A stretch of DNA of 64,000 bases, from positions 1,259 to 65,258 of the forward strand of contig DATGVJ010000374.1 of assembly GCA_035300505.1 (NCBI GenBank), given 5' to 3'. The notes under the pieces were generated by a model. It saw nothing but the letters and a program-made list of their open reading frames with translations, was not told the DNA's origin and made no database searches. The position numbers were made by a program, and so were the translations under genes. The stretch's first letter is position 1. Every line of letters begins with the position of its first letter. The stretch comes from Xanthobacteraceae bacterium. Lineage in GTDB: Bacteria > Pseudomonadota > Alphaproteobacteria > Rhizobiales > Xanthobacteraceae. Below are positions 8,640 to 45,735 of this stretch, piece by piece.

Positions 8640-8794
8640 GTCATTCGACTCCATCGTAGGAAAGATTGCAGAGGTTGCAGGAAGCGGTGCACCCACGCAC
8701 CGTGTTCACGCTAAGATGGGGGTAAGCGTCTTACCCCAACCTGACCGCAGAATTAATCTTTGGTAATATCGCGCTTTAATTGCGATAATTGCGA

Positions 8795-9283: not shown

Positions 9284-9288
9284 TCGCC

Positions 9289-11289: not shown

Positions 11290-11311
11290 CGTGTATGCTC
11301 CTTCATTGTGT

Positions 11312-11779: not shown

Positions 11780-12154
11780 TACGCGTTTCCACAACTGGAG
11801 TTCGGATTCGAAATTACTCCGGCATTAGGGCACAAACTCGTCACGGAGTTGAAGAATTTGGAGACGGCGCCCTCGAAATCGACAGGACACCAGCCTCTGA
11901 ACCATTCCCGTCTGGGCACTCAAGACTATCGTCTATTCGTATCCCCCGCAACAATCGCGGTAACTTCAGTTCCGCCCACCCTACAGCAAGCCCGGAATCA
12001 ATAAAACCGGGTGGTACGCCTAATTTGGTACATGCTTCTTATATTTGAAGGCAAGCTGCGGCAATTCGCCAGAGGGCATCAGGGCTTGCATCGCCAATTG
12101 CCGGCACGCGTTCCAATACGTTGGCGCCGATTGACCGGAACAATCCGGATTCTG

Positions 12155-25605: not shown

Positions 25606-25639
25606 GCCCTTCCCTTCCGCACCGTCCGGGCGTAACTTT
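25606..25639 (+). promoter_or_regulatory. conserved promoter-like box (copy 1 of 4) upstream of the cytochrome c gene
   Basis: GCCCTTCCCTTCCGCACCGTCCGGGCGTAACTTT. Related boxes occur at 37644-37676, 40091-40125 and 42307-42340. Confidence 0.35.
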
Positions 25640-25706: not shown

Positions 25707-26342
25707 ATGCAGCGTCATCTAGTTCCTGCACTCCTAGCCAGCGCAGTTTGTGTCGTGTCGTCCGGCGCATTCGCCCAACAACTCACCGAGCAGCAGACAA
25801 CAGGCCGGCAAGTCTTCGCGCAGTCATGTGGCGTTTGCCACCTGCCGCCCGTGATGAATGCCCGGACCTATGGACCGGCTCTGTCGAAACAGACGGCTGC
25901 CGGCAATGCCGATATTCTCCGCGCCATCATCGGCGAAGGCGGACCGCGCATGCCCGCATTCAAGCACTATCTCGAACGACCGCAGATGGACGCCATCATC
26001 GCCTATCTGTCGACGGTCAATCCCCCGACGCCTCCGGCCCCTGCTGCCACTCCGGCGGCTGCCGCGGCTCCGGCCGCCGCCGCGCGCTTGACCGAGCAGC
26101 AGACCACAGGCCGGCAGGTTTTCGCGCAGTCATGTGGCGTCTGCCATCTCCCGCCCGTGATGGGTGCGCGGACCTATGGTCCTGGCCTGTCGAAGGAGAC
26201 GGCCGCCGGCAATGGCGAGATCATCCGCGCCATCATCAGCGAAGGCGGCCCGCGCATGCCGGCCTTCAAGCACTATCTTGAGCGGACGCAGATGGACGCC
26301 ATCGTTGCCTATCTGTCGACCGTCACGCCTGCAGGTCGCTAA
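25707..26342 (+). CDS. periplasmic dihaem cytochrome c (internal duplication)
   Basis: GGGAGG precedes ATG 25707. Signal peptide ..SGAFAQQ. Two modules each carry QSCGVCHLPPVM (CxxCH) and PRMPAFKHYL (axial Met region), joined by a PPTPPAPAATPAAAAAPAAAA linker. Confidence 0.88.
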   Translation: MQRHLVPALLASAVCVVSSGAFAQQLTEQQTTGRQVFAQSCGVCHLPPVMNARTYGPALSKQTAAGNADILRAIIGEGGPRMPAFKHYLERPQMDAIIAYLSTVNPPTPPAPAATPAAAAAPAAAARLTEQQTTGRQVFAQSCGVCHLPPVMGARTYGPGLSKETAAGNGEIIRAIISEGGPRMPAFKHYLERTQMDAIVAYLSTVTPAGR

Positions 26343-26344
26343 TC

Positions 26345-27201
26345 GGTTTCTGGTTTGACGTCGATCGGGGCCGCCGCAGCCTCGGCAAGGTCGACCCGAA
26401 GACCGAGAAGATCACGGTCTACCAGACGCCGCAAAACATGTCGCCGCTCGGCGGTGCCGTGACGCTCGACGTTGACGGCAAGGGCAAGATCTGGGCATCG
26501 GCCCCGGATGGCGCCGTGCGCTTCGATCCGGAGACCGAACGCTTCACCGACTTCAAGTCCGTCAACAACAAGACCGCGAAAGGCACAGGAATGACCTAAG
26601 GGGCTGCCGGCGACCGCGACGGCAACGGCTGGTGGACCCAGATGGTATTCGACATCGTCGGCAAGGGCGAACCGGCAAGACGCTCGAAGTGCAATTGACG
26701 ATCGTCAAGTCGGAGCTCGATCGCGTCACGCCGCAAGCGCGCGCTCTATGACAAGTTCGACGATCTTTCCTTCGGCAACAATCTGCCGTGGAGCCAGGGA
26801 CCGCGCCGCATGGACACCGATAAGAAGGCCGACGTCTCTGGACCGGCAATTCCTGGGGCGGCACGCTGACCCGCATCAACACCAAGACGCTCGAAGCCAC
26901 GATCGTGCCGCTGCCTGATCCGACATCGATGCAGCCCTACCACATTGTGGTCGACGACAATCACAATGTCTGGGGCAGCCTCTGGACCAACGACCAGATT
27001 CTCAAGTACGACCCGGCGGCCCAAAAGTGGACGACATTCGAACTGCCGGTGCGCGGCACCGAAATCCACCACATCTCGTTCGATGAGCGCAACGGCACCA
27101 CCAAGGTCTTCATGCCGGTCTATCGCACCAACCAGATGGGCGTGATGACGCTGCGCAGCGAAGCCGACATCGCGGCCGTTAGGGCGCAAGCCACGAAATA
27201 G
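26345..27201 (+). pseudogene. 5'-truncated, disrupted fourth copy of the haem-propeller gene family
   Basis: The DNA aligns by eye with about the last 850 nt of 37929-39785 and 40346-42205. There is an in-frame TAA at 26597-26599 plus indels. Only the last 98 codons (26905-27201, ..NVWGSLWTNDQILKYDPAAQKWTTFELPVRGTE..) are open. Confidence 0.75.
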
Positions 27202-30668: not shown

Positions 30669-30949
30669 GCTGCACCTCCGTCGCCAGGACCAAACGCAGA
30701 AAGTTGCGTTATCGGTCGGTGCGTTGCCGGGTCGCCACTATATAACCGATTCGGGCTATTTTTGCCTCGCTATGGTTAGGCCGAGAGCCGGCAGGCACGG
30801 GATCATGCCAACATAGAGAAAGTTCTGAGTTCTGGAAGCGCGCGCAAATATGGTCCGCAGTGCCCTCGATAACAAGCGTCAAAGCGTGTATGCTGCGCAG
30901 GTCGCCTACCAAAGATATACACACATTTGCCGCTTTCCGGGGGAGTTCG

Positions 30950-33900
30950 ATGCGTCGTGTTAAAGCAATCTTGACCGCAGCGCTTTTTTTAATCGCGAGC
31001 CCGCTCGCGCACAGTCAGCCAGATCCGCTTCGCATCTTTGATGGCCTGTGGAGTTCGATCAATTCTCCCGGATTGCAGGTGATCTTCAATCGGGTGAGTG
31101 CCGATCAGCGAGAAGCAAGTCTGTCCTTTGGACATGCTTCCATCAGCCTTTCGAATGGCCGCGACAATTCCAATCTTAAGGTCTCCGGCGAAGGCTTCGA
31201 TTGTTACTATTATGTTGCTGAGGACGTGACGCGCGTCCGAATGACCTGGGATTTGAAGAGCGGGCCTGGTGTCTGCCCGCCTTTGACGGTTTTTGAGAGA
31301 GCTGCGCCCCCACCTGAAAATAATGATGTTGCCGTTGCCGAGTGTGACCGGTTGGCAGCATCCCCCTTCGATCATCTTCGGCCTCCGGGAATTCCAGGGG
31401 TTCTTATTGATCGGATTGATGCCTCCCGGGCCGTACCAGCCTGTCAGGCGGCCGCGGCCGCCCGCCCTGACGACGGCCGGTTGATACTTCAGCTTGGTCG
31501 CGCCCTTTACCGCGTCGGCGGCATTGCCGAAAGGGAAGCCGCACGCCTGTACAAGGTTGCCGCTGACCAGGGCCACGCAGTCGCGCAAAACAATCTCGGC
31601 GTTCTTTATGCGAACGGCCGCAGCGGCCTCCCCAATGACGACCGCGAGGCCGCACGCCTCTCCAAGCTCGCTGCTGACCAAGGCTTTGCAATCGCGCAAT
31701 ATGGTCTCGGTACTTTTTATGCAACCGGCCGCGGCGGCCTCCCAAAGGATGACCAAGAGGCCGCACGCCTTTACAGGCTCGCCGCCGACCAGGGCTACGC
31801 GGTCGCGCAGTACACTCTCGGTGTTTTCCATGCGAACGGGCGCGGCGGCCTCTCCAAGGATGACACCGAGACCGCACGCCTCTACAAGCTCGCTGCTAAC
31901 CAAGGCAACGCTCTTGCGCAAGTCAACCTCGGTGTTTTCTATGCGAATGGCCGAGGTGGCCTCACCAAGGATGACACCGAGGCCGCACGCCTCTACAGGC
32001 TCGCCGCTGACCAAGGCAACGCTCTGGCGCAAGTCAACCTCGGTGTCTTCCATGCGAACGGCCGCGGCGGCATCCCCAAAGATGACCGTGAGGCCGCACG
32101 CCTCTACAAGCTCGCCGCTGACCAAGGCAATGCGTTCGCGCAAGCAAATCTCGGACTTTTCCATGCGAACAGCCGAGGTGGGCTCCCCAAGGATGACCAC
32201 GAGGCCGCGCGCCTTTACAAGCTCGCTGCTGACCAAGGCAATGCGTTCGCGCAAGCCAACCTCGGTGTTTTCCATGCGAACAGCCGAGGTGGGCTCCCCA
32301 AGGATGACCACGCGGCTGCACGCCTCTACAAGCTCGCCGCCGACCAGGGCAACGCGTTCGCGCAAGGCAACCTCGGTATTTTCTACGCGAACGGGCGCGG
32401 CGGCCTGCCCAAGGATGACCGCGAGGCCGCACGCCTCTACAAGCTTGCCGCCGACCAAGGCAACGTGTTCGCGCAGTCCAATCTCGCTATTATTTATGAA
32501 ATCGGGCTGGGCGGCGTCTCCAAAGATGCGGGTGAGGGGGCACGCCTCAACAACCTCGCCGCCTCCCAGGACAACGCGCCGGCGCAACAGCTGCCAGCGC
32601 CAAAATTTGAAACGGAGCCATTTTCCGGCAGCGAGTTGCTCAACGGCAAACGGATTGCCGAACAAGAATGCGCAAATCTTGCGGGAGCAGTCTGGGTCGT
32701 CGTGGACCGAAAAGGAGAGTGCATTCGCTATTATCACACAAGTGCTGGCTCCGGCGCGGACGTGCTGATCTTCCTGACCATCGATATGGTTTCCGTAAAC
32801 GGGCGGGGCGAGGCAAAGCCGCACGAAATTTATTTGCGGCAGACCCCGGCAAATCTCAAGAACGGCAGCGCGAGCTGGTCAAGGGCTCTTGCGCTGCCCT
32901 ATGTGCATCTGGCGCGTCCGGGCACAGAAGGGTCTTCGGGCGAACATAACCAGAGGCGAACCCCACGCGAGATCGAGCTGATTTCGGCAGCGATCGATGC
33001 GATCAAGTTGCGACACAACTATGCACGCATCCATATCGCCGCCTACGACGCGGGCGCACATGCGGCGGCGGTTCTCCTGGCGAAGCGCAGCGACCTTGGT
33101 TGCGTGGTGCTTGCCTCAGGCATGGTCTCGCTGCGAAGCCTTCTCGCAGAACAGGGTCGCGCCATTGACTTCACAGGTCACAAGACTGCGATTGATCCTA
33201 TCACGCTCGTCGATCGTATCGCCAAGCGGCCGGACCTGCGCATTTTCGTTGTGACGGACCCCGACGATCTCGTCATCTCGGCGCGCTCGCAAACAATCTA
33301 TGCCAAGCGTCTTGCAGCTGCAGGTCTGCCGGTCCGGCAAATCTTTACGGCCGCTTCCGGCTACAGCGCCCACGGTTTGTTCGAGCCAGCACGCCAAATC
33401 GCTGCGAACTGCGCCAAGGGAATGGCCGACGATGCAATCGTTGCTTCGATTCAAAAAAAACTGCCCGAAACGCCCCCCGACGCCGACGACCCGCCATTGC
33501 ACGGCACCGACGTCATAAGCCGCGGGGTCAAGCTTAATGAGGCGCAATGCAAGAAGCTCGGTATGGCGCTTTGGGTGCATGCCGAGGGCCGCGATTTTTG
33601 CGTGCGGTATTGGCTCTCCACGGTGGGCGGCTCCAAGGATGAGGCGGAAATATATTTTCACGGAGACCTCGGCGATCCCAAGAAACCGCTCGGGGCGCTC
33701 AGTGCTCCCGCGGCGCGAATGACCTCCGGTGGTTTGCAGCGGGAGGCCCACGGCTGGTCACGGTCGTTCGGCGGCCCCTATGCGGAGGTTGGACGACTTG
33801 GCGCGTTGGGTTCCTCCGGAGTCCATCTCCATGAGCGTCGTACGCTGCTCGAGGTCCGCGTCGCGATGGCCGCGCTCGACGGCCTAAAAGAGCGACATCG

Positions 33901-34396
33901 GTTCAAACGATTTCACCTGGTGGGCCAGTCCGGAGGCGGACACACGGTTGCGGCGCTGACCCAGTTGAGAAATGACATCGGCTGCGCCGTCATGGCGTCC
34001 GGCGCAGTGTCGGTGAAATCGGTGCATCGGGATCGCGGCCTCCAGGCGGGACCATTGATCAAGTCGCTCTACGACCCCATCGATCATGTTGCGAAGATGC
34101 AGGATCAGGCGGGGCGGCGCATGGTTGTCCTGGCGGATCCAGACGACCGCATCGTTTCCGCACGCTCGCAGCGGGAGTTCGTCGATCGCGTCCGGTCCCG
34201 CGGACTGCCGATCCTGCACATTACGGCGGCCGCCGGCGATGAAGACCATCACGGGCTGGCATCGATCGGCAGGCGTCTGGTTGCGGATTGCGCCAAAGGT
34301 GTCGATGATGAGGTGTTGATCAAGCGTTACCAGGACAAGGTAGCGCCAGCGCTCACCCCTTCTTCGCCACCGGCACCGGCACGCCGGCAATCTTGA
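30950..34396 (+). CDS. secreted Sel1-repeat protein with two tandem alpha/beta-hydrolase-like modules
   Basis: GGGGGAG precedes ATG 30950. Signal peptide MRRVKAILTAALFLIASPLAHS. About 9-10 consecutive 36-aa Sel1 repeats (EAARLYKLAADQGNAFAQANLGVFHANSRGGLPKDDH). Two homologous modules of about 265 aa follow, and the second carries HLVGQSGGGH. Confidence 0.85.
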   Translation: MRRVKAILTAALFLIASPLAHSQPDPLRIFDGLWSSINSPGLQVIFNRVSADQREASLSFGHASISLSNGRDNSNLKVSGEGFDCYYYVAEDVTRVRMTWDLKSGPGVCPPLTVFERAAPPPENNDVAVAECDRLAASPFDHLRPPGIPGVLIDRIDASRAVPACQAAAAARPDDGRLILQLGRALYRVGGIAEREAARLYKVAADQGHAVAQNNLGVLYANGRSGLPNDDREAARLSKLAADQGFAIAQYGLGTFYATGRGGLPKDDQEAARLYRLAADQGYAVAQYTLGVFHANGRGGLSKDDTETARLYKLAANQGNALAQVNLGVFYANGRGGLTKDDTEAARLYRLAADQGNALAQVNLGVFHANGRGGIPKDDREAARLYKLAADQGNAFAQANLGLFHANSRGGLPKDDHEAARLYKLAADQGNAFAQANLGVFHANSRGGLPKDDHAAARLYKLAADQGNAFAQGNLGIFYANGRGGLPKDDREAARLYKLAADQGNVFAQSNLAIIYEIGLGGVSKDAGEGARLNNLAASQDNAPAQQLPAPKFETEPFSGSELLNGKRIAEQECANLAGAVWVVVDRKGECIRYYHTSAGSGADVLIFLTIDMVSVNGRGEAKPHEIYLRQTPANLKNGSASWSRALALPYVHLARPGTEGSSGEHNQRRTPREIELISAAIDAIKLRHNYARIHIAAYDAGAHAAAVLLAKRSDLGCVVLASGMVSLRSLLAEQGRAIDFTGHKTAIDPITLVDRIAKRPDLRIFVVTDPDDLVISARSQTIYAKRLAAAGLPVRQIFTAASGYSAHGLFEPARQIAANCAKGMADDAIVASIQKKLPETPPDADDPPLHGTDVISRGVKLNEAQCKKLGMALWVHAEGRDFCVRYWLSTVGGSKDEAEIYFHGDLGDPKKPLGALSAPAARMTSGGLQREAHGWSRSFGGPYAEVGRLGALGSSGVHLHERRTLLEVRVAMAALDGLKERHRFKRFHLVGQSGGGHTVAALTQLRNDIGCAVMASGAVSVKSVHRDRGLQAGPLIKSLYDPIDHVAKMQDQAGRRMVVLADPDDRIVSARSQREFVDRVRSRGLPILHITAAAGDEDHHGLASIGRRLVADCAKGVDDEVLIKRYQDKVAPALTPSSPPAPARRQS
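31535..32560 (+). repeat. 108-nt coding tandem array (Sel1 repeats)
   Basis: The repeats are head-to-tail with no spacers. Several neighbouring units are nearly identical at the DNA level. The array also generates the stop-free antisense ORF 30989..32824. Confidence 0.85.
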
Positions 34397-35354
34397 CCTT
34401 CACGGCGCCGACATAGTTCCAGTTGGTGTAGTAGAGCGTCTTCCAGTCGTCGCCGCCGAAGGCGATGTTGGTGGTCTCAGGGCGCCCATGCACGATGCGG
34501 CCGAGTTTCTTGCCCTTGGGGTCGAGAATGTAGATTCCGCCCGACCCGCCGCAATAGACGTTGCCCGCAACGTCGACTTTCAAGCCGTCGGGACCGCCGG
34601 GTTCTGGACCGCGCAGGTCGGCAAAAACACGATCGGTCTGTTTGGCCAAAAGGCCATTGGGCAAAACGTCGAACGCGCGGATGAGCCCGCGCCGGAAATC
34701 CGTGATGTACATCACGCTCTCGTCCGGTGAAAACGCAAGCCCATTCGGAAACACGAAGTCGTTCGCCAGCAAGGTCATGGTTCCGAGGTCCGCCGATACC
34801 CGATAGACGCCCGGGAACCCGATGTCCCATTGCTCGGGCATCGCGTTCAACGGATCGGTGAAATAGATCGCGCCGTCCGATTTCACGATGACGTCGTTTG
34901 GGATGTTGAGCTGCTTGCCCTGGAAGCTGCCGGAGATCACCGTGATGCTGCCATCGGCTTCGCGCCGCGTGATCCGCCGCGTCACGCGTTCGCAGCCGAC
35001 CAGGCGGCCCTGAAGGTCGCGCGTGAGCCCGTTGGTGCGGTTGACCGGCTCGCGCGCCACCGAGGCGCCCTGCCCGGGCACATATTTCATCTGTCGATTG
35101 TTGTGGATGTCGCTGTAGAGAAGATAGCCGCCTTCCTTCCACCAGAGCGGGCCTTCGGTCGGCCCCATGGTGCCGCCGGTGCCTGAGGCGAGTTCCTCAA
35201 TCGGCTCGGACGTGGCGATGATGCTGTCGAGTTCCGGAGCAAATTTTTCGATCCGCTTTGCCGTCTGCGCGGACGCGCGCGACCCGCCAACCGCAAGACC
35301 GGCCGCCGACATCGCCAGCATGTGCCGCCGCGAAATGTCGGATTGTTTAGCCAT
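34353..35354 (-). CDS. Tat-exported SMP-30/gluconolactonase/LRE-family beta-propeller protein
   Basis: GGGAGGAAACG precedes ATG 35354. Tat-like SRRHMLAMSAAGLAVGG. Further motifs are PNDVIVKSDGAIYFTDP, PNGLAFSPDE and GGPDGLKVDVAGNVY. Confidence 0.8.
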   Translation of the reverse strand: MAKQSDISRRHMLAMSAAGLAVGGSRASAQTAKRIEKFAPELDSIIATSEPIEELASGTGGTMGPTEGPLWWKEGGYLLYSDIHNNRQMKYVPGQGASVAREPVNRTNGLTRDLQGRLVGCERVTRRITRREADGSITVISGSFQGKQLNIPNDVIVKSDGAIYFTDPLNAMPEQWDIGFPGVYRVSADLGTMTLLANDFVFPNGLAFSPDESVMYITDFRRGLIRAFDVLPNGLLAKQTDRVFADLRGPEPGGPDGLKVDVAGNVYCGGSGGIYILDPKGKKLGRIVHGRPETTNIAFGGDDWKTLYYTNWNYVGAVKVKIAGVPVPVAKKG

Positions 35355-35423
35355 CGTTTCCTCCCTTGGGTTCACCTCTTATTCTACGCGGAGGATACCC
35401 CAAAAAACCATTGGCCGCTGGTA

Positions 35424-36794
35424 TTAACGCGCCGCCAACATGGTTTTCGATGTGCGGTTTTCATCATCATCGTCGGATGGATGCAGCCTCCGCGGGTGGG
35501 TTGTGGCTCGGCCAAGCGCCTCCAGCCGGGTCCGCACCAAGGCAATGTGGTCGCGCAGGATGTAGAGCTGGCTGACAAAGCCCGGCGGCAGCTTGATGTG
35601 ATTGGCTTGCTGCTCGAGCCGATCGAGTTGCGCCGCCAATTGCAGGTCATTGCGGTTGACGCCGGTGCGCTCCATCTCGTCTTCCAACAAACGCAATTCG
35701 CCGTAAAGACGCGTGATCTTCGAGCGCATGGCCCAGCCGTATAGAGCCGGTGCAATCCGCACCAAGGGATAGAGGACGCCCAGGAGCGGTATGGCAACGA
35801 TGACCAGCCGCCCGATCAGGGAGGCGGCCCAGAACGGCAGGTAGTTCTGCAGAATAGGTCTGCCCGATTTGTAAAACTGGAGCGCATCGGCCGCCAGCGG
35901 GAGGTCAGTCATCTCGGCGGCGGGAAACTGGCCGGCATGATTGAAGATGCCCGGCGCCGAATGCACCTGCACCGCGGTCTGCAGCAGCAGAAATTTCAGC
36001 GCCGAGTGCAGGTCTTTGCGGACTGCCAGACTGGCCTTCGGCGCAACCAGCGCGACGTCCGAGGACGGACGGTTGCGGGCGAGGTCGGCGACGCCTTCCG
36101 GAACGATCACTTTGCTGAGAAAGGGAAAGAGCGCCACATAGGCGTCGGCGTTAGGGAAACTGGAGACCGTCACCCGCTCATCGGTGATCAGGCGGGCAAT
36201 GACGGGCGAGTCGAAAGCGACGAGCAGGATCGCGGCGTCGATCTCGCCGGCCAGCAGCTTCTCGCTCGCCACTTGTGTCGTCAAAGGCAGAAGTTCCCCG
36301 ACCGCATCGGCCATACCGCTGCGTTTGAGAAGTTCCAGCGCCACGGCGCGGGTTCCGCTGCCTTCCGGTCCGACCGACACTTTCTTGCCGCGCAGCGCAT
36401 CGAGCCCGCGGCCGCGCAACTCGCTGCGCAGGAACAGCCAAAGCGGTTCGTAGAAGACGGTTCCGAGCGCTTCGGCCTCGGGCGACGAGCGCTCGTCGGT
36501 AATGCCGCCCTGCAGCAACGCCACACTCACGCCGGACTGGGGGTCGCGCAGCAACTTTAGATTTTCCAGTGCGCCGCTGGTCGGCACCAGCCGCAGCGTG
36601 ATGCCATCGCGTGCCAACAGGTCGCGATAGCGCTTGCCGACCTCGAAATAAGCGCCGCCTTCGGCACCGGTCGCCATGGTGATGACGCGCGGCGGCAGCG
36701 TATACCACACCATGAAGGCAGCGCCCGCCATCACGGCCGCCACCGCCAGGCTCATGAGGAACCAGCGCGCGCGTGAAAATCCTTTGACAGCCAT
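35424..36794 (-). CDS. TAXI-family (TRAP-type) solute-binding protein homologue with C-terminal membrane/coiled-coil region
   Basis: N-terminal anchor, then ITMATGAEGGAYFEVGKRYRDLLARDGITLRLVPTSGALENLKLL..VSVALLQGG, which is typical of TAXI binding proteins. C-terminal TM helices and a helical tail follow. Confidence 0.6.
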   Translation of the reverse strand: MAVKGFSRARWFLMSLAVAAVMAGAAFMVWYTLPPRVITMATGAEGGAYFEVGKRYRDLLARDGITLRLVPTSGALENLKLLRDPQSGVSVALLQGGITDERSSPEAEALGTVFYEPLWLFLRSELRGRGLDALRGKKVSVGPEGSGTRAVALELLKRSGMADAVGELLPLTTQVASEKLLAGEIDAAILLVAFDSPVIARLITDERVTVSSFPNADAYVALFPFLSKVIVPEGVADLARNRPSSDVALVAPKASLAVRKDLHSALKFLLLQTAVQVHSAPGIFNHAGQFPAAEMTDLPLAADALQFYKSGRPILQNYLPFWAASLIGRLVIVAIPLLGVLYPLVRIAPALYGWAMRSKITRLYGELRLLEDEMERTGVNRNDLQLAAQLDRLEQQANHIKLPPGFVSQLYILRDHIALVRTRLEALGRATTHPRRLHPSDDDDENRTSKTMLAAR

Positions 36795-37567: not shown

Positions 37568-37589
37568 CATTAACATCATTATGTTAATG
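37568..37589. promoter_or_regulatory. perfect 9-4-9 palindrome in an AT-rich intergenic island
   Basis: CATTAACAT-CATT-ATGTTAATG. The surrounding 37480-37620 region is conspicuously AT-rich for this genome. Confidence 0.3.
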
Positions 37590-37643: not shown

Positions 37644-37676
37644 GCTCTTCCCCTCGGGTTAAACCCAGCGTAATCT
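37644..37676 (+). promoter_or_regulatory. conserved promoter-like box (copy 2 of 4)
   Basis: GCTCTTCCCCTCGGGTTAAACCCAGCGTAATCT, 31 nt upstream of the cytochrome c relic ATG. Confidence 0.35.
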
Positions 37677-37706: not shown

Positions 37707-37928
37707 ATGAAGTTCACCACGATCACGCGTTGCGTTTGCGTTCCTGGCCTCGACGCTGTCGGTTGCGGCAGGGCCTGCGTCCGCCCAGCAGTTTACCAAA
37801 CAGCAGACCACAGGCCGGCAGCTTTTCGCCCAGTCCTGCGGAGTCCGATCATCGCTTGCCTGTCGACTGTCACCCCGGCCGCAGCAGCAAATCAACCATG
37901 CTGAGCGGACCATCCAAGGAGAAGCAGA
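37707..37928 (+). pseudogene. cytochrome c relic (frameshifted, haem-binding core deleted)
   Basis: One frame reads ..VAFAFLASTLSVAAGPASAQQFTKQQTTGRQLFAQSCG (compare the intact QQLTEQQTTGRQVFAQSCGVCH). It then jumps to ..IIACLSTVTPAAA in another frame (compare IVAYLSTVTPAGR). Confidence 0.6.
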
Positions 37929-39785
37929 ATGAACATTAGGAAGAAACGTTTCATGTTGGGCGTTGCCGCCATGGTTACGGCGGGCTTGGTCACGACGGTT
38001 GCCTCGCAGGCCGCCGAACAAATTCTCTCCGGGACCATCACCTCGGCCACGGGCGAAAAGCTGGGCGGCGTGACGGTGTCGGCCAAGCGCGACGGCACCA
38101 CGATCACGACCAGCGTCTATACCGACGAACAGGGCAACTATTATTTCCCGCCGATGGAGGCCGGCAAGTACAACGTTTGGGCGCAGGCGCTCGCCTTCGA
38201 GACATCGAAGAGTGCAGTCGACCTGTTGGCTGCCAAGCGCCAGAACCTCGCCCTCAAGGCGATCACCGACAAGGAGCGCGCTTTCCGCCAACTGCCCGGC
38301 GAAATGATGATCGCGGCTCTGCCGGAAGCAACGACCGAAGATGCCAACATGAAGAAAATCTTCATGAACCAGTGCACGGGTTGTCATGCGCCGAACTATC
38401 CGCTGCAATTCCGCTTTGATGAAGCAGGCTGGAGCAAGATCATCGACCTCATGAAGGTCGTGCAGAACACCGGCGCCTATCCGGCAAACCCCAAGGCTAA
38501 CCAGATCATCGATATGAACCAGAAGCAGCTCGCGGCCTATCTGGCCCGTGCGCGTGGTCCTGGCGAAAGTTCCGTGAAGGTGGTGTCACGTCCCCGCCCG
38601 TCCGGCGAAGCCGCTCGTGCGGTTTGGACGCTCTATGATGTCCCGCAGAATGCCGACGCCGGCATTACCCTCGCCCACGGGCCCGGGCCACAGAATGACG
38701 GCACGGACTGGACCCAGGGCACGACTTCCAAGCTCGGCCTGATCACCCATGACGGTGGCATGGACTTCGACGGCAACATCTGGTTCACCTCGAACTCGCC
38801 GAACAAGAGCGTCACAGTCGGCCGCGTCAACGCCAAGACCGGTGAATACAAGGCACTCAAAGTCAACCGCAATGACGGCCGCGCCGCCAACGCTCATGGC
38901 CTGACCCGCGACGCCGAAGGCAATCTCTGGTTCGACGTCGATCCGGGCCGCCGCAGCCTCGACAAGCTCGACCCGAAGACCGAGAAGATCACCGTCTACC
39001 AGACGCCGCAGGGCATGTCGCCACTCGGCGGCGCCGTGACACTCGACGTCGACGGCAAGGGCAAGGTCTGGGCATCCTCTCCGGACGGCGTGCTGCAATT
39101 CGACCCGGTGAGCGAGAAGTTCACCGAGTTCAAGTCCAAGAACCACAAGACCGCACGTGGCCAGGCCAACACCTACGGCGCCGCCGGCGACCGTGACGGC
39201 AATGGCTGGTGGGCGCAGATGGGCTGGGACACAATCGGCAGGGCCAACATCGCGGATGGCTCGACGGTCGAGATCAAGCTGCCGGAAAACAAGGCGGAAA
39301 TGGACCGGCTCACCCCGGCTCAGCTCGCGGCTTACGACAAGGTCGACGACCTTGCCAACGGCAACCCGCTCCCCTGGGGCCAGGGTCCGCGCCGCATGGG
39401 CACGGACAAGAAGGCCGACGTCCTCTGGGTCGGCAACTCCTGGGGCTCGAGCCTGGCCCGCATCGACACCAAGACGAACGCCACGACGATTGTGCCGTTC
39501 CCCGACAAGGCGATGCAGCCCTACCACATCGCAGTCGACGATCAGCACAACGTCTGGGGCAACCTCTGGACCAATGACCAGATCGTCAAATATGACCCCG
39601 CAACGCAGAAGTGGACGACCTTCGAACTGCCGGTCCGCGGCACGGAGATTCGCCACATCGCGGTTGACGAGCGTCAAGGCACGCTCAAGGTCGTCGTTCC
39701 GGTCTACCGCACCAACCAGATGGGCGTGATGTCGGTGCGCAGCGAGGCCGATCTCGCGGCCCTCAAGGCGAAGGCGGTGAACTAG
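37929..39785 (+). CDS. secreted CarboxypepD_reg-like / mono-haem cytochrome c / beta-propeller protein, paralogue 1
   Basis: TCCAAGGAGAA Shine-Dalgarno. Signal peptide ..VTTVASQA/AEQ. LSGTITSATGEKLGGVTVSAKRDG..YTDEQGNYYFPPMEAGKYNVWAQA. CxxCH in NQCTGCHAPNYP. Blade-like repeats (GNIWFTSN.., GNLWFDVDPG.., GKVWASSPDG.., NVWGNLWTNDQIVKYDP). Confidence 0.85.
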   Translation: MNIRKKRFMLGVAAMVTAGLVTTVASQAAEQILSGTITSATGEKLGGVTVSAKRDGTTITTSVYTDEQGNYYFPPMEAGKYNVWAQALAFETSKSAVDLLAAKRQNLALKAITDKERAFRQLPGEMMIAALPEATTEDANMKKIFMNQCTGCHAPNYPLQFRFDEAGWSKIIDLMKVVQNTGAYPANPKANQIIDMNQKQLAAYLARARGPGESSVKVVSRPRPSGEAARAVWTLYDVPQNADAGITLAHGPGPQNDGTDWTQGTTSKLGLITHDGGMDFDGNIWFTSNSPNKSVTVGRVNAKTGEYKALKVNRNDGRAANAHGLTRDAEGNLWFDVDPGRRSLDKLDPKTEKITVYQTPQGMSPLGGAVTLDVDGKGKVWASSPDGVLQFDPVSEKFTEFKSKNHKTARGQANTYGAAGDRDGNGWWAQMGWDTIGRANIADGSTVEIKLPENKAEMDRLTPAQLAAYDKVDDLANGNPLPWGQGPRRMGTDKKADVLWVGNSWGSSLARIDTKTNATTIVPFPDKAMQPYHIAVDDQHNVWGNLWTNDQIVKYDPATQKWTTFELPVRGTEIRHIAVDERQGTLKVVVPVYRTNQMGVMSVRSEADLAALKAKAVN

Positions 39786-39831
39786 AAAACACAAGCACGC
39801 GAAAACGCGTACTTGTGTTTGTGAAGATTAG

Positions 39832-39861
39832 GAGGCGCGGACCAATCCGCGCCTCTTTTTA
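39832..39861 (+). terminator. rho-independent terminator of paralogue 1
   Basis: GAGGCGCGG-ACCAAT-CCGCGCCTC followed by TTTTTA. It is preceded by a second imperfect hairpin, ACACAAGCACGCG..CGCGTACTTGTGT. Confidence 0.8.
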
Positions 39862-39877
39862 TGGGTCAAGGGCACGG

Positions 39878-40043
39878 ATCGTCGGATGGGTAGAGGTAAA
39901 GCGCGTTCTTCACGCGATTTACCGAAACCCATCGACCCCACGGGCCGCAAAAATGATAGGCTTCGGCATGTGGTTGATGGGTTTCGCCATAGCGCGTCGC
40001 GAGACGCGCGTAAACGCGCTTATGGGCCTCAACCCATCCTACG
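39878..40043. repeat. MITE/REP-like element, family A (copy 2)
   Basis: ATCGTCGGATGGGTAGAGG ... GAAACCCATCG ... TGATGGGTTTCGCC ... CCTCAACCCATCCTACG. Same organisation as 1012-1286. Confidence 0.7.
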
Positions 40044-40090
40044 ATGACCCGCCCCTACGAAGAAAGCCTTCCCTTCAGTTTAGTTGTAGG

Positions 40091-40345
40091 CCCCCTTCCC
40101 CTCAGCACCACTCAGGCGTAATCTTCGGCCGAACTTGTGGTCGGGAAGGCATTTTCTGATTCCACGCATTGGCATGGCCGGTGGGAGGCATCGGCGGCGG
40201 GAACCCTGCCATCAAGGCCTCGGACCGCAATGCCAATGTTAAAGCTCCATTGCGAAAACTTCTGTGTTACAATTCTGTGTCAGGTTTCTATCGTCACCGG
40301 CCGTACCAGCGTACATGTTCTGGACCGGCCTATCCAAGGAGAACC
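40091..40345 (+). promoter_or_regulatory. conserved box (copy 3 of 4) plus about 220-nt conserved leader / eroded cytochrome c gene
   Basis: CCCCCTTCCCCTCAGCACCACTCAGGCGTAATCTT, followed by a leader that aligns along its whole length with 42307-42540. No credible ORF; the track's 40169 start is an extension of paralogue 2. Confidence 0.45.
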
Positions 40346-42205
40346 ATGATGAATGTTAAGAAGCATCGTTTCATGTTGAGTGCTGCCGCCATCGTCACGG
40401 CCGGTTTCGTCACGACGGTTGCCGGACAGGCCGCCGAACAAATTCTCTCCGGCACCATCATCTCCGCATCGGGCGATAAGCTGGGCGGCGTGACGGTATC
40501 GGCCAAGCGCGACGGCACCACGATCACGACGAGTGTCTATACCGACGAACAAGGCAACTATTATTTCCCGCCGATGGAAGCCGGCAAGTATAACGTCTGG
40601 GCGCAGGCGCTTTCCTTCGAGACATCCAAGAATGCGGTTGATCTCTCCGCTGCCAAGCGCCAGGATCTCGCCCTCAAGCCGATCACCGACAAGGAGCGCG
40701 CTTTCCGCCAACTGCCCGGCGAAATGATGATCGCAGCGCTGCCCGAAGCAACGACCGAAGATGCCAACATGAAGCGAACCTTCATGAACCAGTGCACCGG
40801 TTGTCATTCGCCGAACTATCCGCTGCAGTTCCGCTTCGACGAAGAAGGCTGGAACAAGATCATCAACCTGATGAAGGTCGTGCAGGGCACCGGCGCCGTC
40901 CCGCCGAACCCGAAGGCCAACCAGATCATCGAGATGAACCAGAAGCAGCTCGCGGCCTATCTCGCTCGCGCGCGTGGCCCTGGTGAAAGCTCGCTCAAAG
41001 CCGTGTCGCGTCCGCGTCCGTCCGGCGAAGCCGCACGCGCGGTATGGACCCTCTATGACGTGCCGCAGAATGCCGAAGCCGGCATTACTGCTGCCCATGG
41101 GGTGGGCCCGCAGAATGACGGCACCGATTGGACCCAAGGCACCACGTCCAAACTCGGCCTGATCACCCACGACGGCGGCATGGATTTTGACGGCAATATC
41201 TGGTTCACATCGAATACGCCGAACAAGACCGTCACCATCGGCCGGGTCAACGCCAAGACCGGTGAATACAAGCCGCTCAAGGTCAACCGCAATGACGGCC
41301 GCGCCGCGAATGCTCACGGCCTGACACGCGACGCCGAAGGCAATCTGTGGTTCGACATCGATCCGGGCCGACGCAGCCTCGGCAAGCTCGATCCGAAGAC
41401 CGAGAAGATCACCGTCTACCAGACGCCACAAAACATGTCGCCGTTGGGCGGCGCCGTGACGCTCGACGTCGACGGCAAGGGCAAGATCTGGGCCTCGGCT
41501 CCGGACGGCGTGCTGCAGTTCGACCCCGCGACCGAGAAGTTCACCGAGTTCAAGACCAAGAACTTCAAGACGGCTCGGGGCCAGGGCACCACCTACGGCG
41601 CCGCCGGCGACCGCGACGGCAACGGCTGGTGGGCGCAGATGGCTTGGGACACGATCGGCAGGGCCAACATCGCGGATGGCTCGACGGTCGAAATCAAGCT
41701 GCCGGAGAACAAGTCCGAGATGGACCGCCTGACGCCGGCTCAGCTCGCGGCCTATGACAAGGTCGACGATCTCGCTATTGGCAACCCGCTCCCCTGGGGC
41801 CAGGGTCCGCGCCGCATGGGCACTGACAAGAATGCCGACGTGCTTTGGGTCGGCAACTCCTGGGGCTCGAGCCTCGCCCGCATCGACACCAAGACGAACG
41901 CCACGACGATCGTGCCGTTCCCCGACAAGGCGATGCAGGCCTACCACATCGCGGTCGACAACAACCACAACGTCTGGGGCAACCTCTGGACCAATGACCA
42001 GATCGTCAAATATGACCCCGCGACGCAGAAGTGGACGACCTTCGAACTGCCGGTCCGCGGCACTGAGATTCGCCACATCTCGGTTGACGAGCGTCAAGGC
42101 ACGCTCAAGGTCGTCGTTCCGGTCTACCGCACCAACCAGATGGGCGTGATGTCGGTGCGCAGCGAGGCCGATCTCGCGGCCCTCAAGGCGAAGGCGGTGA
42201 ACTAA
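40346..42205 (+). CDS. secreted CarboxypepD_reg-like / mono-haem cytochrome c / beta-propeller protein, paralogue 2
   Basis: Start is MMNVKKHRFML at ATG 40346, after TCCAAGGAGAACC. Nearly identical to paralogue 1. CxxCH in NQCTGCHSPNYP. Confidence 0.85.
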   Translation: MMNVKKHRFMLSAAAIVTAGFVTTVAGQAAEQILSGTIISASGDKLGGVTVSAKRDGTTITTSVYTDEQGNYYFPPMEAGKYNVWAQALSFETSKNAVDLSAAKRQDLALKPITDKERAFRQLPGEMMIAALPEATTEDANMKRTFMNQCTGCHSPNYPLQFRFDEEGWNKIINLMKVVQGTGAVPPNPKANQIIEMNQKQLAAYLARARGPGESSLKAVSRPRPSGEAARAVWTLYDVPQNAEAGITAAHGVGPQNDGTDWTQGTTSKLGLITHDGGMDFDGNIWFTSNTPNKTVTIGRVNAKTGEYKPLKVNRNDGRAANAHGLTRDAEGNLWFDIDPGRRSLGKLDPKTEKITVYQTPQNMSPLGGAVTLDVDGKGKIWASAPDGVLQFDPATEKFTEFKTKNFKTARGQGTTYGAAGDRDGNGWWAQMAWDTIGRANIADGSTVEIKLPENKSEMDRLTPAQLAAYDKVDDLAIGNPLPWGQGPRRMGTDKNADVLWVGNSWGSSLARIDTKTNATTIVPFPDKAMQAYHIAVDNNHNVWGNLWTNDQIVKYDPATQKWTTFELPVRGTEIRHISVDERQGTLKVVVPVYRTNQMGVMSVRSEADLAALKAKAVN

Positions 42206-42247
42206 CTCTACAAGAGGCGCTGCCCCATAGGCAGCCCGAAACAACGA

Positions 42248-42285
42248 GGGCGGCTCATTCCGAAGGGATGAGCTGCCCTTTTTTA
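42248..42285 (+). terminator. rho-independent terminator of paralogue 2
   Basis: GGGCGGCTCAT-TCCGAAGGG-ATGAGCTGCCC followed by TTTTTT. Confidence 0.8.
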
Positions 42286-42306
42286 TTGTTAAATTGCCGC
42301 ATTCCC

Positions 42307-42540
42307 TGCCCTTCCCCTCGGGGCCGCCCGGGCGTAATCTCGCACATAGCACGTGGTCGGGAGGGCAATTTCTGATTCCACGCATTGGCATTGGCGGCGG
42401 GCATACCCGCCATCAAGACCTCGCCAGTGTTAAAGCGCCATTGTCACGACTTCTGCGTTACGATTTTGTGTTAGCTTTCTGTCGTCACCGGCCGCACCAG
42501 CATACTTCGAGGTACTGAACCGGCCTATCCAAGGAGAACC
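42307..42540 (+). promoter_or_regulatory. conserved box (copy 4 of 4) plus about 200-nt conserved leader / eroded cytochrome c gene
   Basis: TGCCCTTCCCCTCGGGGCCGCCCGGGCGTAATCT, followed by a leader homologous to 40126-40345. Its 3' part, GCTTTCTGTCGTCACCGGCCGCACCAGCA, resembles the end of the cytochrome c relic at 37860-37900. Confidence 0.45.
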
Positions 42541-44394
42541 ATGATGAACGTTACGAAGAAGCATCGTTTCATGTTGGGTGCGGCCGCCATCGTCACGGCC
42601 GGTTTCGTCACGACAGTTGCCGCGCAGGCAGCCGAGCAATTGCTCTCGGGCACCATCACCTCGGCGTCAGGCGAGAAGATGGGTGGCGTCACGGTGTCAG
42701 CCAAGCGCGAAGGATCGACTATCGCGACCCATGTCTACACCGATGAACAGGGCAATTATTATTTCCCGGCCATGGAAGCCGGCAAGTATCGCGTTTGGGC
42801 ACAGGCTTTGAGCTACGAGGCCGCCAAGAGCGAGGTCGATCTCGCTGCAGCCAAGAAGCAAGATCTCGTGCTGCAACCAATGACCGATCAAGAGCGCCGC
42901 TGGCGGCAGCTTCCGGCCGAACTGATGATTGCGTCGTTGCCGGAAGAAACCACGCAAGACGCGCAGATGAAGAAGATTTTCAGCAACCAATGCCTTGGCT
43001 GCCACATGTCGAGCTACCCGTTGCAGTTCAAGTTCGACGAGGCAGGCTGGAGCAAGGTCATCGACCTCATGAAGCTGGTGCAGAACACCGGCAACCTGGT
43101 CGCCAGCGCCAAGCCCAACCAGATCATCGAACTCAACCAGAAGGGACTTTCGGCCTATCTTGCCAAGGTGCGCGGACCCAATTCAGCCGCGCTCAAGATC
43201 AAAGAACGCCCGCGTCCGAGCGGCGAAGCAGCCCAGGTCGTGTGGAATACCTATGACGTTCCGCAAAACCCGGATGCGGGCGTTGGAATCACCGCCCATA
43301 CCAATGACGGCACGGATTGGTCGCTGGGGACCACCACCCGCATGACGCTGCTCCAGCATGATGGCGCCATGGATTTCGACGGCAATCTCTGGTTCACGTC
43401 CAACGCGCCGAACAAGGTGGTCACCATCGGCCGCGTCGATACCAAGACCGGCGAAGTGAAATTCCTCAAGGTCAACCGCAACGACGGCCGCGCCGCCAAT
43501 GCGCACGGGCTCACCCGCGACGCCGAAGGCAATCTCTGGTTCGACATCGATCCGGGCCGCCGCAGCCTCGGCAAACTCGACCCGAAGACAGAGAAGATAA
43601 CGGTCTACCAGCCGCCGCTAAACATGTCGCCGCTCGGCGGCGCCGTGACGCTCGATGTCGACGGCAAAGGCAAGGTATGGGCCTCTTCGCCAGACGGCGT
43701 GTTGACCTTCGACCCGGCCACCGAGAAGTTCACGGAGTTCAAATCCAAGAACTCCAAACGGGCGAACGGAACAGCCGGCACCTATGGGGCCGCGGGCGAT
43801 CGCAGTGGCAATGGCTGGTGGGCGCAGATGGGTTGGGACACGATCGGCAAGGCCGATATGTCGAGCGGCTCCACAGTCGAGATCAAGTTGCCGGAATACA
43901 AGCCCGGCATGGACTTGTTCACCCCGGAACAGATCGCGGCCTATGACAAGGTCACGGATCTCTCCAACGGCAGTCCGCTGCCCTGGGGCCAGGGACCGCG
44001 CCGCATGGGCACCGACAAGAATGCCGACATCCTCTGGGTCGGCAATTCGTGGGGTGCGAGCTTTGCCCGCATCGACACCAAGACGAATGAAACTACGATC
44101 ATTCCGTTCCCCGACAAGGCCATGCAGGCCTATCACATCCATGTCGACAGCAAGCACAATGTGTGGGGCAACCTGTGGACCAACGACCAGATCGTGAAAT
44201 ACGACCCGGCCGCCGGCAAGTGGACGACTTACGAAATGCCGGTGCGCGGCACTGAAAGCCGGCACGTCTCGGTCGACGAGCGCAGCGGGCGGACCAAGGT
44301 CATCCTGCCGACCTACCGGTCGCACCAGATGTTCGTCATGACCATCCGCACCGCGGAAGACATCGCGGCGCTGAAGGCGCAGACGGCGAAGTAA
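42541..44394 (+). CDS. secreted CarboxypepD_reg-like / mono-haem cytochrome c / beta-propeller protein, paralogue 3 (diverged)
   Basis: Same architecture as paralogues 1 and 2. CxxCH in NQCLGCHMSSYP. Many substitutions throughout, but all blade motifs are retained. Confidence 0.85.
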   Translation: MMNVTKKHRFMLGAAAIVTAGFVTTVAAQAAEQLLSGTITSASGEKMGGVTVSAKREGSTIATHVYTDEQGNYYFPAMEAGKYRVWAQALSYEAAKSEVDLAAAKKQDLVLQPMTDQERRWRQLPAELMIASLPEETTQDAQMKKIFSNQCLGCHMSSYPLQFKFDEAGWSKVIDLMKLVQNTGNLVASAKPNQIIELNQKGLSAYLAKVRGPNSAALKIKERPRPSGEAAQVVWNTYDVPQNPDAGVGITAHTNDGTDWSLGTTTRMTLLQHDGAMDFDGNLWFTSNAPNKVVTIGRVDTKTGEVKFLKVNRNDGRAANAHGLTRDAEGNLWFDIDPGRRSLGKLDPKTEKITVYQPPLNMSPLGGAVTLDVDGKGKVWASSPDGVLTFDPATEKFTEFKSKNSKRANGTAGTYGAAGDRSGNGWWAQMGWDTIGKADMSSGSTVEIKLPEYKPGMDLFTPEQIAAYDKVTDLSNGSPLPWGQGPRRMGTDKNADILWVGNSWGASFARIDTKTNETTIIPFPDKAMQAYHIHVDSKHNVWGNLWTNDQIVKYDPAAGKWTTYEMPVRGTESRHVSVDERSGRTKVILPTYRSHQMFVMTIRTAEDIAALKAQTAK

Positions 44395-44427
44395 AGAGAT
44401 CACAAGCACGCGCAGACGCGTGCTTGT

Positions 44428-44511
44428 GATTGGAAATGAGAGAGGCGCGGATCAGTCCGCGCCTTTTTTGATTGGAAATGAGAGAGGCGCGGATCAGTCC
44501 GCGCCTTTTTT
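44428..44511 (+). terminator. tandemly duplicated rho-independent terminator (2 x 42 nt)
   Basis: GATTGGAAATGAGAGAGGCGCGGATCAGTCCGCGCCTTTTTT occurs twice head-to-tail. It is preceded by the perfect hairpin 44399-44430, ATCACAAGCACGCG-CAGA-CGCGTGCTTGTGAT. Confidence 0.8.
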
Positions 44512-44541
44512 TAATTTGGTGCGTGCGATCGATTCACGTCC

Positions 44542-44704
44542 CGTAGGGTGGGCAGAGGCGCCGGGCACAATCGTGGGGCATGAAACGTGCCTCAATGGCG
44601 CCGTGCCCACGCGGCAACTTACACGCGGGGGAACGCGTGGGCACGGCGCCGCGCAGTTTTGTGTTTGTTTTGAGGTCGGTGCCCGGCGCCTTTGCCCACC
44701 CTAC
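44542..44704. repeat. MITE/REP-like element, family A variant (GTAGGGTGGGCAGAGGCGCCGGGCAC ... GTGCCCGGCGCCTTTGCCCACCCTAC)
   Basis: Long terminal inverted repeats were seen directly. It abuts the stop codon of the amidohydrolase gene. Confidence 0.7.
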
Positions 44705-44709
44705 AAACC

Positions 44710-45735
44710 CTACGCGATCCCCAACCTCGTCGCGATCGCGCGGCCCATGATCCAGTCCTTGTCTTCTTCCGACAAGAAGCTGAGTTCCTGCGTGAAATGC
44801 TCGATGCGCTGGCGATAGATCGCCTTGGCAAACGAATTGGTCATGTCGGTGCCCCAGAAACAGCGGCGCGGACCAAACGCATCGAACAGGCGTTTGATGC
44901 TCTCCGTCATGTCGCGATAGGGATAAGGATCGAACGAGTAGGTCGGTGCCGACGACAGCTTGACCGAAACATTCGGATATCGCGCCAGCGCAACGGAATC
45001 GCTGATCGCCGCCGGAATCCTTCGCTCCTTTGCGATTTCCAGCGTCAGCCCCATGTGATCGATAATGAGTTGCAGACCGGGATGACGCTCGGCGATGCGG
45101 GCGAACTGTGGTGTCTGACCATTGGTCAGGAACATCACCGGAATGCCGGCTTTCTCGGCCGCCGGCCAGAACCAATCCGCGGTTCCATTGGTCAACCAGA
45201 CTGCCTGCGTACCATTGAAGGACACGCGAATGCCCTTCATTCCAGGCTGCTCTTTCCACTTCGGCAACAGGCCGGCGGAGTCGGGCTTCTCGATCGCGAT
45301 GCGGCCCATGATCGCAAACCGATCCGGATGGCGTGCAACGGCCTCAAGCGCATAGTCGTTGCGATCGCCTTCCCAGGAAGGCGGCACGATGACGACACGA
45401 TCGACACCGGCTTCGTTCATTATCGGCAGCAATTTTTCGACCGTGAATGGCTCAGGCAGTTGCGGCGTAGCGCCCGGCCGCCAAGGCCGGTCTGCTGTTG
45501 CTGGCTTCCAGAGGTGAACCTGCGCGTCGACGATCATGCGTTTGCGAGAACCAGTTTGTGGAGCAGGAGCCTGCTGCGAAGCAGCCGGCTGTGCAACAGC
45601 CGGCAAGCCGAAAGCCGTGAGCAGCACGCCGACGCCCGTTGCGGAACTGAGAAAAAGCCGGCGTGAAAATTGGAGTGATGTATCATCTGATTCATCACGC
45701 GCTGACATTGTCCGCTCCTGTGTTGAAACCGGCAT
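44710..45735 (-). CDS. Tat-exported amidohydrolase-2-family metal hydrolase
   Basis: Tat-like SRRLFLSSATGVGVL. Motifs IVDAQVHLW, LIIDHMG and FWGTDMT are typical of the PF04909-type TIM-barrel hydrolases. Confidence 0.7.
   Translation of the reverse strand: MPVSTQERTMSARDESDDTSLQFSRRLFLSSATGVGVLLTAFGLPAVAQPAASQQAPAPQTGSRKRMIVDAQVHLWKPATADRPWRPGATPQLPEPFTVEKLLPIMNEAGVDRVVIVPPSWEGDRNDYALEAVARHPDRFAIMGRIAIEKPDSAGLLPKWKEQPGMKGIRVSFNGTQAVWLTNGTADWFWPAAEKAGIPVMFLTNGQTPQFARIAERHPGLQLIIDHMGLTLEIAKERRIPAAISDSVALARYPNVSVKLSSAPTYSFDPYPYRDMTESIKRLFDAFGPRRCFWGTDMTNSFAKAIYRQRIEHFTQELSFLSEEDKDWIMGRAIATRLGIA

Follow-up and report, generated by a model that had tools for sequence, protein, structure and literature searches.

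Virginiamycin B lyase (Vgb; 2z2n, 2z2o, 2z2p, 2qc5) is a single-domain, Mg2+-dependent C–O lyase of about 300 amino acids (aa), folded as a seven-bladed propeller in which Mg2+ and the substrate are bound close to polar residues conserved in blades 6 and 7 (PMC8916777). It is the nearest characterised relative in fold of the proteins studied here, which are encoded by three tandem genes in a stretch of 64,000 nucleotides (nt) from a Xanthobacteraceae bacterium (GCA_035300505.1, contig DATGVJ010000374.1, positions 1,259 to 65,258; hereafter the window). The gene arrangement recalls a second group of systems, the periplasmic redox enzymes. NirS is periplasmic and carries a cytochrome c domain N-terminal to its propeller, and the small class-I cytochrome c551 (NirM) is encoded adjacent to it. 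In quinohaemoprotein and other pyrroloquinoline quinone (PQQ) dehydrogenases (type II alcohol dehydrogenase (ADH), 1kv9; six-bladed PQQ enzymes with c4 or c551), the propeller site is linked through haem c to the respiratory chain, and six-bladed PQQ enzymes have adjacent mono- or di-haem cytochrome partners (bioRxiv 10.64898/2026.07.10.737718). SorT/SorU sulfite dehydrogenase and PchF/PchC p-cresol methylhydroxylase each combine a periplasmic dehydrogenase with a dedicated small cytochrome c. The reading favoured here, which we hold to be about evenly balanced between right and wrong, is that the three genes encode a propeller oxidoreductase linked to haem c, and that its propeller comes from a family for which redox chemistry is not known.

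A first-pass annotation, made from the DNA letters, had placed three co-oriented genes of one common architecture in this region. Three intact genes of 617–619 aa were found exactly there on the + strand:

37929–39785, + strand: copy 1 gene, 618 aa (open reading frame and domain evidence)
37929–38012, + strand: copy 1 signal peptide, aa 1–28
38025–38249, + strand: copy 1 CarboxypepD_reg domain, aa 33–107
38373–38387, + strand: copy 1 CTGCH, aa 149–153, in the haem-c domain of about aa 112–230, which also holds Met175
38619–39737, + strand: copy 1 seven-bladed propeller, aa 231–603, followed by a C-terminal helix
40346–42205, + strand: copy 2 gene, 619 aa, architecture as copy 1, 91% identity to copy 1
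42541–44394, + strand: copy 3 gene, 617 aa, architecture as copy 1, 74% identity to copy 1

The shared architecture was recovered in each copy. A Sec-type signal peptide ending in ..VTTVASQA/AEQ is followed by an Ig-like CarboxypepD_reg domain, then by a helical segment with the sole CxxCH of the protein (CTGCH, CTGCH and CLGCH in copies 1, 2 and 3) and by the propeller. Two of the domain matches expected beforehand were obtained above the Pfam cut-offs, namely CarboxypepD_reg (PF13620; 50–55 bits in all three copies, cut-off 32.3, aa 33–107, E 1e-14) and SGL (PF08450; 31–38 bits, cut-off 26.3), the latter as two partial stretches on a protein whose model, against the six blades of the lactonase fold, is seven-bladed and nearer to Vgb. 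The picture was less favourable for the other two. Vgb_lyase (PF24684) matched the C-terminal ~380 aa of copies 1 and 2 (53.3 bits) but fell short of its cut-off of 50 in copy 3 (46.6 bits), and the cytochrome c match was weak and below threshold (Cytochrome_CBB3, E 0.07, 14 bits where 27 are needed). The Pfam scan up to E 1 gave no PQQ, GSDH or Cytochrom_D1 match.

The propeller fold, proposed earlier from the repeats, is clearly predicted. AlphaFold2, run with an alignment of 53 sequences, returned a model with a predicted local distance difference test score (pLDDT) of 80.9 and a predicted template modelling score (pTM) of 0.84. It contains seven four-stranded blades (aa 276–603), the last of which is closed by an N-terminal strand (aa 231–237). 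In Foldseek searches of the PDB the top matches were virginiamycin B lyase structures (2z2n, 2z2o, 2qc5; E 1e-15, template modelling score 0.81–0.84 normalised to Vgb), followed by other seven-bladed propellers such as BT4663 and YncE, and no solved structure spans the whole protein. Modelled alone (aa 108–232, 20 sequences), the haem domain gave a poor model (pLDDT 69), with which Foldseek found nothing in the PDB under E 3; a profile of this domain produced only marginal CcoP and c6 matches among PDB sequences.

The family proteins share with Vgb the seven-bladed propeller and the blade repeat, and profile alignments of ambiguous blade register put conserved His/Tyr residues at the first-strand position of Vgb Y18 and H270. 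Unlike Vgb, which has neither haem nor signal peptide, they have both and are twice its size, and their ring of conserved residues spans blades 1, 2, 4, 5, 6 and 7 with two His, two Tyr and two Arg. None of the curated NCBIfam families claims the protein, and the Vgb(A)/(B) models NF000022/NF000096 score 22.8–24.9 bits, where 600 would be required. In spite of its Vgb-like propeller, the protein is not a Vgb lyase as judged by curated score, size, localisation and domain content. A cytochrome c domain before the propeller and an adjacent small cytochrome c gene are shared with NirS/NirM. NirS, however, has eight blades and haem d1, whereas the family has seven blades, no Cytochrom_D1 match and an extra Ig-like domain, and its locus lacks d1 biosynthesis genes nearby. 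The proposed path from propeller site through haem c to the respiratory chain would resemble that of the PQQ dehydrogenases, but these have six or eight blades and PQQ/GSDH signatures that the family lacks, and in type II ADH the domain order is reversed. SorT and PchF, finally, offer the likeness of a dedicated cytochrome c, but their catalytic subunits, which carry a molybdenum cofactor or a flavin, are unrelated to the family propeller.

Further evidence for a redox function comes from the genes next to the propeller gene in relatives. A total of 160 non-redundant loci was examined, consisting of 80 GTDB loci (including L001, a syntenic locus from a metagenome-assembled genome (MAG)) and 80 metagenomic loci with distant relatives (31–43% identity); the partner was counted over the 156 gene copies whose flank measures at least 400 nt. 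Directly 5' of 136 of these copies (87%), and on the same strand, lies a gene for a mono-haem cytochrome c of ~110 aa; the gap between the two genes has a median of 28.5 nt. This synteny is seen in the close GTDB loci and in the distant metagenomic relatives alike. In L001, 112-aa mono-haem cytochromes precede the first and the third of three tandem copies, with gaps of 42 and 19 nt. In 11 cluster representatives the partner is fused to the family protein, at the N-terminus in 9 and at the C-terminus in 2. The partner is a class-I cytochrome resembling c6, c551, CcoP, SorU and PchC, with all matches below family cut-offs; SorU and PchC are acceptor cytochromes of periplasmic dehydrogenases. 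A weak similarity to the cytochrome domain of ADH was also seen.

Neighbour clustering over the 160 loci identified the small cytochrome c as the sole neighbour conserved family-wide. TonB-dependent receptors, a ~300-aa protein without Pfam match, zinc-ADH and Amidohydro_2 genes occur in subsets only, mostly in distant metagenomic loci. In one subclade a ~1060-aa TonB-dependent receptor with a CarboxypepD_reg N-terminus adjoins the cytochrome-propeller pair in the same orientation (directly 5' in L133, L139, L143, L152, L155 and L156; 3' in L095 and L154), and such loci often hold one to three copies of the ~300-aa protein. Genes for LLM monooxygenase, SDR and PQQ dehydrogenase were considered as further partners and set aside as lineage synteny, recurring in the closest relatives only. 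Bug-type binding proteins, present in 26 GTDB loci, several of them from Betaproteobacteria, were read as lineage background. A distant paralogue of 708 aa (25% identity) with the partner cytochrome fused N-terminally lies convergent to the main gene in L103 (2366–4492, - strand), and a convergent paralogue of this type is likewise present in L106, L109, L112, L116, L117, L119 and L136.

The family is widespread, strongly conserved and uncharacterised, and it is neither rare nor a one-off. A word-indexed search gave more than 2,722 homologues; the best 120 of these have 69–97% identity and 566–620 aa, and bear only the names 'streptogramin lyase/mono/diheme cytochrome c family protein' and 'carboxypeptidase regulatory-like domain-containing protein'. 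An exhaustive search yielded 266 cluster representatives (clusters at 50% identity) with E <= 1e-30, the most distant full-length relatives having about 31% identity. In the scan of GTDB species genomes 284 encoding stretches were found. The best 80 of them are all from MAGs, at 60–76% identity, and belong to Xanthobacteraceae and other Alphaproteobacteria, Burkholderiales and other Betaproteobacteria, Acidobacteriota, Rokubacteria, Micropepsaceae and Chloroflexia, for the most part aerobic soil lineages. The members of ten distant clusters are all metagenome-derived and carry generic names only; one comes from a MAG assigned to Patescibacteria. Many genomes hold several copies of the gene. 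A literature search found no work on the family, which, together with the NCBIfam scores and the missing full-length PDB match, bears out the earlier statement that it has no characterised relative.

Conservation of the CxxCH in relatives had been named beforehand as a test of the annotation. All 53 close and all 43 distant sequences aligned (the latter at 31–56% identity) carry C149, C152, H153 and M175, and a pattern scan found CxxCH in 42 of 44 full-length representatives. The invariance of these four residues indicates a covalently bound haem, probably with His/Met ligation, M175 being the candidate sixth ligand by its conservation. A His/Met haem c is an electron-transfer centre and not a catalytic one.

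In the propeller each blade opens with the motif x-G-x-x-x-D. The residues heading motifs 1–7 are H274, H323, V370, Y416, R488, Y532 and R575, and all of them except V370 are kept in 35–42 of 43 distant relatives. In hidden Markov model alignments Vgb Y18 falls on Y532, and the EPHGIT of Vgb (with H270) falls on NAHGLT (with H323) of a different blade, the blade register being ambiguous owing to the repeat. H270A is an inactive Vgb variant according to the title of its PDB entry. Since the ring residues are conserved and, in these alignments, fall at the first-strand position of Vgb Y18 and H270, the central pocket of the propeller is the putative functional site. A four-histidine metal centre was also considered, based on H274, H323, H533, H540 and H576, which are invariant in close relatives; it was rejected, as H533 and H576 vary in distant members.

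Taken as a whole, a soluble cytochrome c that is dedicated to the enzyme, keeps its place beside the gene and is in some cases fused to the product marks a periplasmic enzyme with a connection to the respiratory chain, and is the reason to favour a periplasmic oxidoreductase that would pass electrons via its own haem to this cytochrome. We rate this interpretation as having roughly equal chances of being correct or not; the partner gives further support to the redox-enzyme reading proposed in the first-pass annotation. The Sec-exported enzyme would consist of three parts, the Ig-like CarboxypepD_reg domain, the His/Met haem-c domain, serving electron transfer only, and the seven-bladed Vgb-type propeller. 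The substrate would bind in the central pocket on the top face, lined by H274, H323, Y416, R488, Y532 and R575 with V370 at blade 3, and the pocket may also hold a second cofactor. Electrons would be exchanged between the pocket and the built-in haem and move on to the ~110-aa class-I cytochrome c and the respiratory chain. The likeliest direction would be substrate oxidation, with a terminal oxidase as end point.

Several points weigh against this interpretation. The single haem is the sole redox cofactor visible from sequence, and most substrates are beyond the oxidising capacity of a His/Met haem on its own. Among characterised propellers the closest one, Vgb, performs lyase and not redox chemistry. 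In which direction the electrons flow is not readable from the sequence, and genomic context offers no clue to the substrate because only the cytochrome neighbour is conserved. Furthermore, none of the three copies in the window has an adjacent intact partner gene, a situation met in 13 copies at other loci as well. Finally, the promoter-like motif discussed below was chosen after inspection of the sequences, and of its four sites in the window three lie in duplicated DNA.

The main rival, which we consider unlikely, is a relay running in reverse, in which a periplasmic reductase or detoxifying enzyme acting on an oxyanion, N-oxide or peroxide-like compound would be fed by bc1 via the small cytochrome c. 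A cytochrome c domain, a propeller and an adjacent small cytochrome c gene correspond to the NirS/NirM layout, a ring rich in Arg, Tyr and His would suit an anionic substrate, and the sequence leaves either electron direction possible. This rival is nevertheless disfavoured by the Pfam scan, in which neither Cytochrom_D1 nor any other reductase-cofactor signature appeared, by the predominance of aerobic soil lineages among the hosts and by the neighbourhoods of related loci, in which no cofactor-biosynthesis genes were found. The closest matches of the partner, moreover, include the dehydrogenase acceptors SorU and PchC.

A redox role towards a metal or chelate imported through the outer membrane appears distinctly improbable. 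In such a case the metal complex would be held by the ring, and the one-electron chemistry, either ferric chelate reduction or Fe(II)/Mn(II) oxidation, would take place directly at the haem. The attraction of this proposal is that a haem suffices for one-electron metal chemistry; in CeuE and similar periplasmic binding proteins, ferric catecholates are bound by pockets of His, Tyr and Arg, and the co-oriented TonB-dependent receptor adjoins the module in several distant loci. The receptor link is confined to one subclade, however, and neither the window nor any of the 80 GTDB loci shows it. It may also be due to chance, as TonB-dependent receptors are very abundant in Acidobacteriota, and no iron-regulation or siderophore genes were seen nearby.

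Even less probable is a non-redox lyase, hydrolase or lactonase of the Vgb type, whose haem domain would be structural or act as a redox or gas sensor. It would explain why Vgb lyase is the nearest fold and Pfam family, why SGL lactonase models match too and why lactonase-type SGL and Amidohydro_2 genes flank the array. It would leave unexplained the dedicated soluble cytochrome c found at most loci and fused in several representatives, it is at odds with the NCBIfam Vgb scores, far under cut-off, and the lactonase and amidohydrolase genes beside the array lie on the other strand and are not conserved across loci. Last, a non-catalytic electron-transfer scaffold or binding protein, with the propeller as a docking platform as in YncE or the BT4663 sensor propellers, both of which were matched in sequence and fold searches, is hardly credible given a conserved polar ring with one residue per blade down to 31% identity, as is typical of an active site, an identity of 60–75% across phyla that points to tight catalytic constraint, and a partner cytochrome that it does not account for.

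If the periplasmic oxidoreductase is taken as the working interpretation, the question arises of what serves as partner in the window. Three degenerate or fused elements are relevant:

25707–26342, + strand: di-haem cytochrome c gene, intact, two partner domains in tandem fusion, 55–58% identity to the L001 partner
26294–27201, + strand: degraded fourth copy of the propeller gene, frameshifted, with only the equivalent of aa 305–616 left and the N-terminal half lost
37708–37845, + strand: remnant of a partner cytochrome gene 5' of copy 1, truncated and frameshifted near its start

The remnant reads ..SVAAGPASAQQFTKQQTTGRQLFAQSCGV (also given as ..QQTTGRQLFAQSCGV) and ends just before the CH of the CxxCH; the intact L001 partner reads GRQLLAQSCGVCH. 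The di-haem cytochrome gene is located 11.6 kb 5' of the array, and its product is probably the redox partner of the three copies in trans. Its two domains are joined by a Pro/Ala linker, with an 18-nt repeat at 26032–26084. The module has been copied to four loci in this genome, three of them with intact, separately terminated and apparently co-regulated copies which have lost the adjacent cytochrome gene and are probably served by the di-haem fusion. Genes for cytochrome c maturation are found at 8795–13189 of the window, among them CcmF (9289–11460) and CycH (12155–13189), both needed for haem c attachment. Close to them are a DegP-like protease (7098–8696) and two-component systems.

The three copies are old duplicates retained by purifying selection, as follows from the substantial synonymous divergence (dS 0.36 between copies 1 and 2, 0.88 and 0.79 for the other pairs) and from ratios of nonsynonymous to synonymous divergence (dN/dS) of 0.13–0.22. 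The greater divergence of copy 3 had been noticed in the annotation and agrees with the identities to copy 1 listed above. The description of copies 1 and 2 as nearly identical fits their 91% identity in kind but is slightly overstated in view of their dS. Copy 3 retains all conserved haem and ring residues, and in the alignment the ring residues of the propeller are the same in all three copies. Differences among the copies cluster in the haem domain and in the low-confidence linker, the proportion of nonsynonymous differences (pN) reaching a maximum of 0.30 in codons 201–250. Given the identical ring, this distribution suggests that the copies may differ in partner docking or regulation and not in substrate. 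Over the final ~68 codons of copies 1 and 2 (codons 551–618; about 39579–39782 and 41999–42202), the synonymous difference drops to 0.06, against 0.28 overall, which suggests recent gene conversion at their 3' ends. Elements of ~160–270 bp resembling repetitive extragenic palindromes or miniature inverted-repeat transposable elements (REP/MITE), with inverted GTAGGRTGGG..AGG ends, were found at 39881–40042, 44543–44704 and 1013–1285. Seven such ends occur in the window, against 0.7 expected. Two of the elements sit just past the terminators of copies 1 and 3, and these elements may have mediated the copy duplications.

The expression signals around the genes are the following:

25610–25635, + strand: promoter-like motif before the di-haem cytochrome c gene
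37648–37673, + strand: promoter-like motif before copy 1 and the cytochrome remnant, TTCCCCTC-N-GGCGTAA
39789–39861, + strand: 3' region of copy 1, two hairpins with a T-run after the second (GGCGCGGACCAATCCGCGCC)
40096–40121, + strand: promoter-like motif before copy 2, leader of about 225 nt
42246–42290, + strand: terminator of copy 2, stem of 16 bp, then a T-run
42312–42337, + strand: promoter-like motif before copy 3, leader of about 204 nt
44399–44513, + strand: 3' region of copy 3, a first hairpin and behind it the terminator hairpin, duplicated as an exact 42-nt tandem repeat

Each copy was said to possess its own Shine-Dalgarno sequence and terminator, and both are present in all three: AAGGAG lies 7 nt 5' of each ATG, and 3' of each stop codon there is a GC-rich hairpin with a T-run behind it. 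The exact 42-nt tandem duplication that holds the terminator hairpin of copy 3 covers 44427–44511. The post hoc motif TTCC[CT]-N13-20-GCGTAA occurs 4 times in the window, against 0.24 expected, always on the + strand and each time before one of the four units. A longer version, CTTCCCCTC-N-GCGTAATCT, matches only the sites before copies 1–3. In relatives the motif (TTCCC-N~16-GGCGTAA) likewise precedes units in L001 (9560, 13977), L053 (8386, 10776, 15046), L043 and L045. The common motif suggests that the di-haem cytochrome gene and the three copies may be co-regulated. Together with the individual terminators, its occurrence before each copy backs the earlier view that the genes are expressed separately and not as an operon. 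The leaders of copies 2 and 3 (40125–40345 and 42341–42540, about 200–225 nt) are alike and show no detectable likeness, up to E 10, to the cytochrome c gene whose place they hold. No family came near threshold in an Rfam scan of 36.8–45.0 kb, and the long leaders are thus without a recognised riboswitch or leader RNA in that scan. About 60 nt 5' of the promoter-like motif of copy 1, an AT-rich inverted repeat, CATTAACAT-CATT-ATGTTAATG, is found at 37568–37589 and may be a regulator binding site.

The neighbours of the array are - strand genes at 34353–35375, 35424–36794 and 44710–45735, encoding SGL/SMP-30 lactonase-like, TAXI-type solute-binding and Amidohydro_2 (lactonase-like) proteins, none of which is conserved across related loci. 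Further upstream, a 111-nt tandem repeat present 8.5 times (31538–32475) corresponds to Sel1 repeats within a protein of 1178 aa (30860–34396).

The family is abundant and unusually well conserved, with 60–75% identity across Alphaproteobacteria, Betaproteobacteria and Acidobacteriota, and the conserved two-gene module and its natural fusions provide a clear construct for biochemistry. If the favoured reading is true, redox catalysis is possible on a Vgb-type propeller, a scaffold known only for lyase (Vgb) or alkylating (CylK) activity. A further-reaching proposal, which we put forward tentatively and with more doubt than confidence, is that these proteins are the first example of a new class of periplasmic respiratory enzyme. 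In it the Vgb-type propeller would act as redox catalyst, with a new cofactor or a cofactor-free His/Tyr/Arg site, and would be wired through the built-in haem c and the dedicated cytochrome c to the respiratory chain, drawing energy in uncultured soil Proteobacteria, Acidobacteriota and others from an unrecognised electron donor. As the dedicated cytochrome c implies a link to the respiratory chain, the identity of the substrate could reveal an electron donor or acceptor not yet recognised in soil and groundwater.

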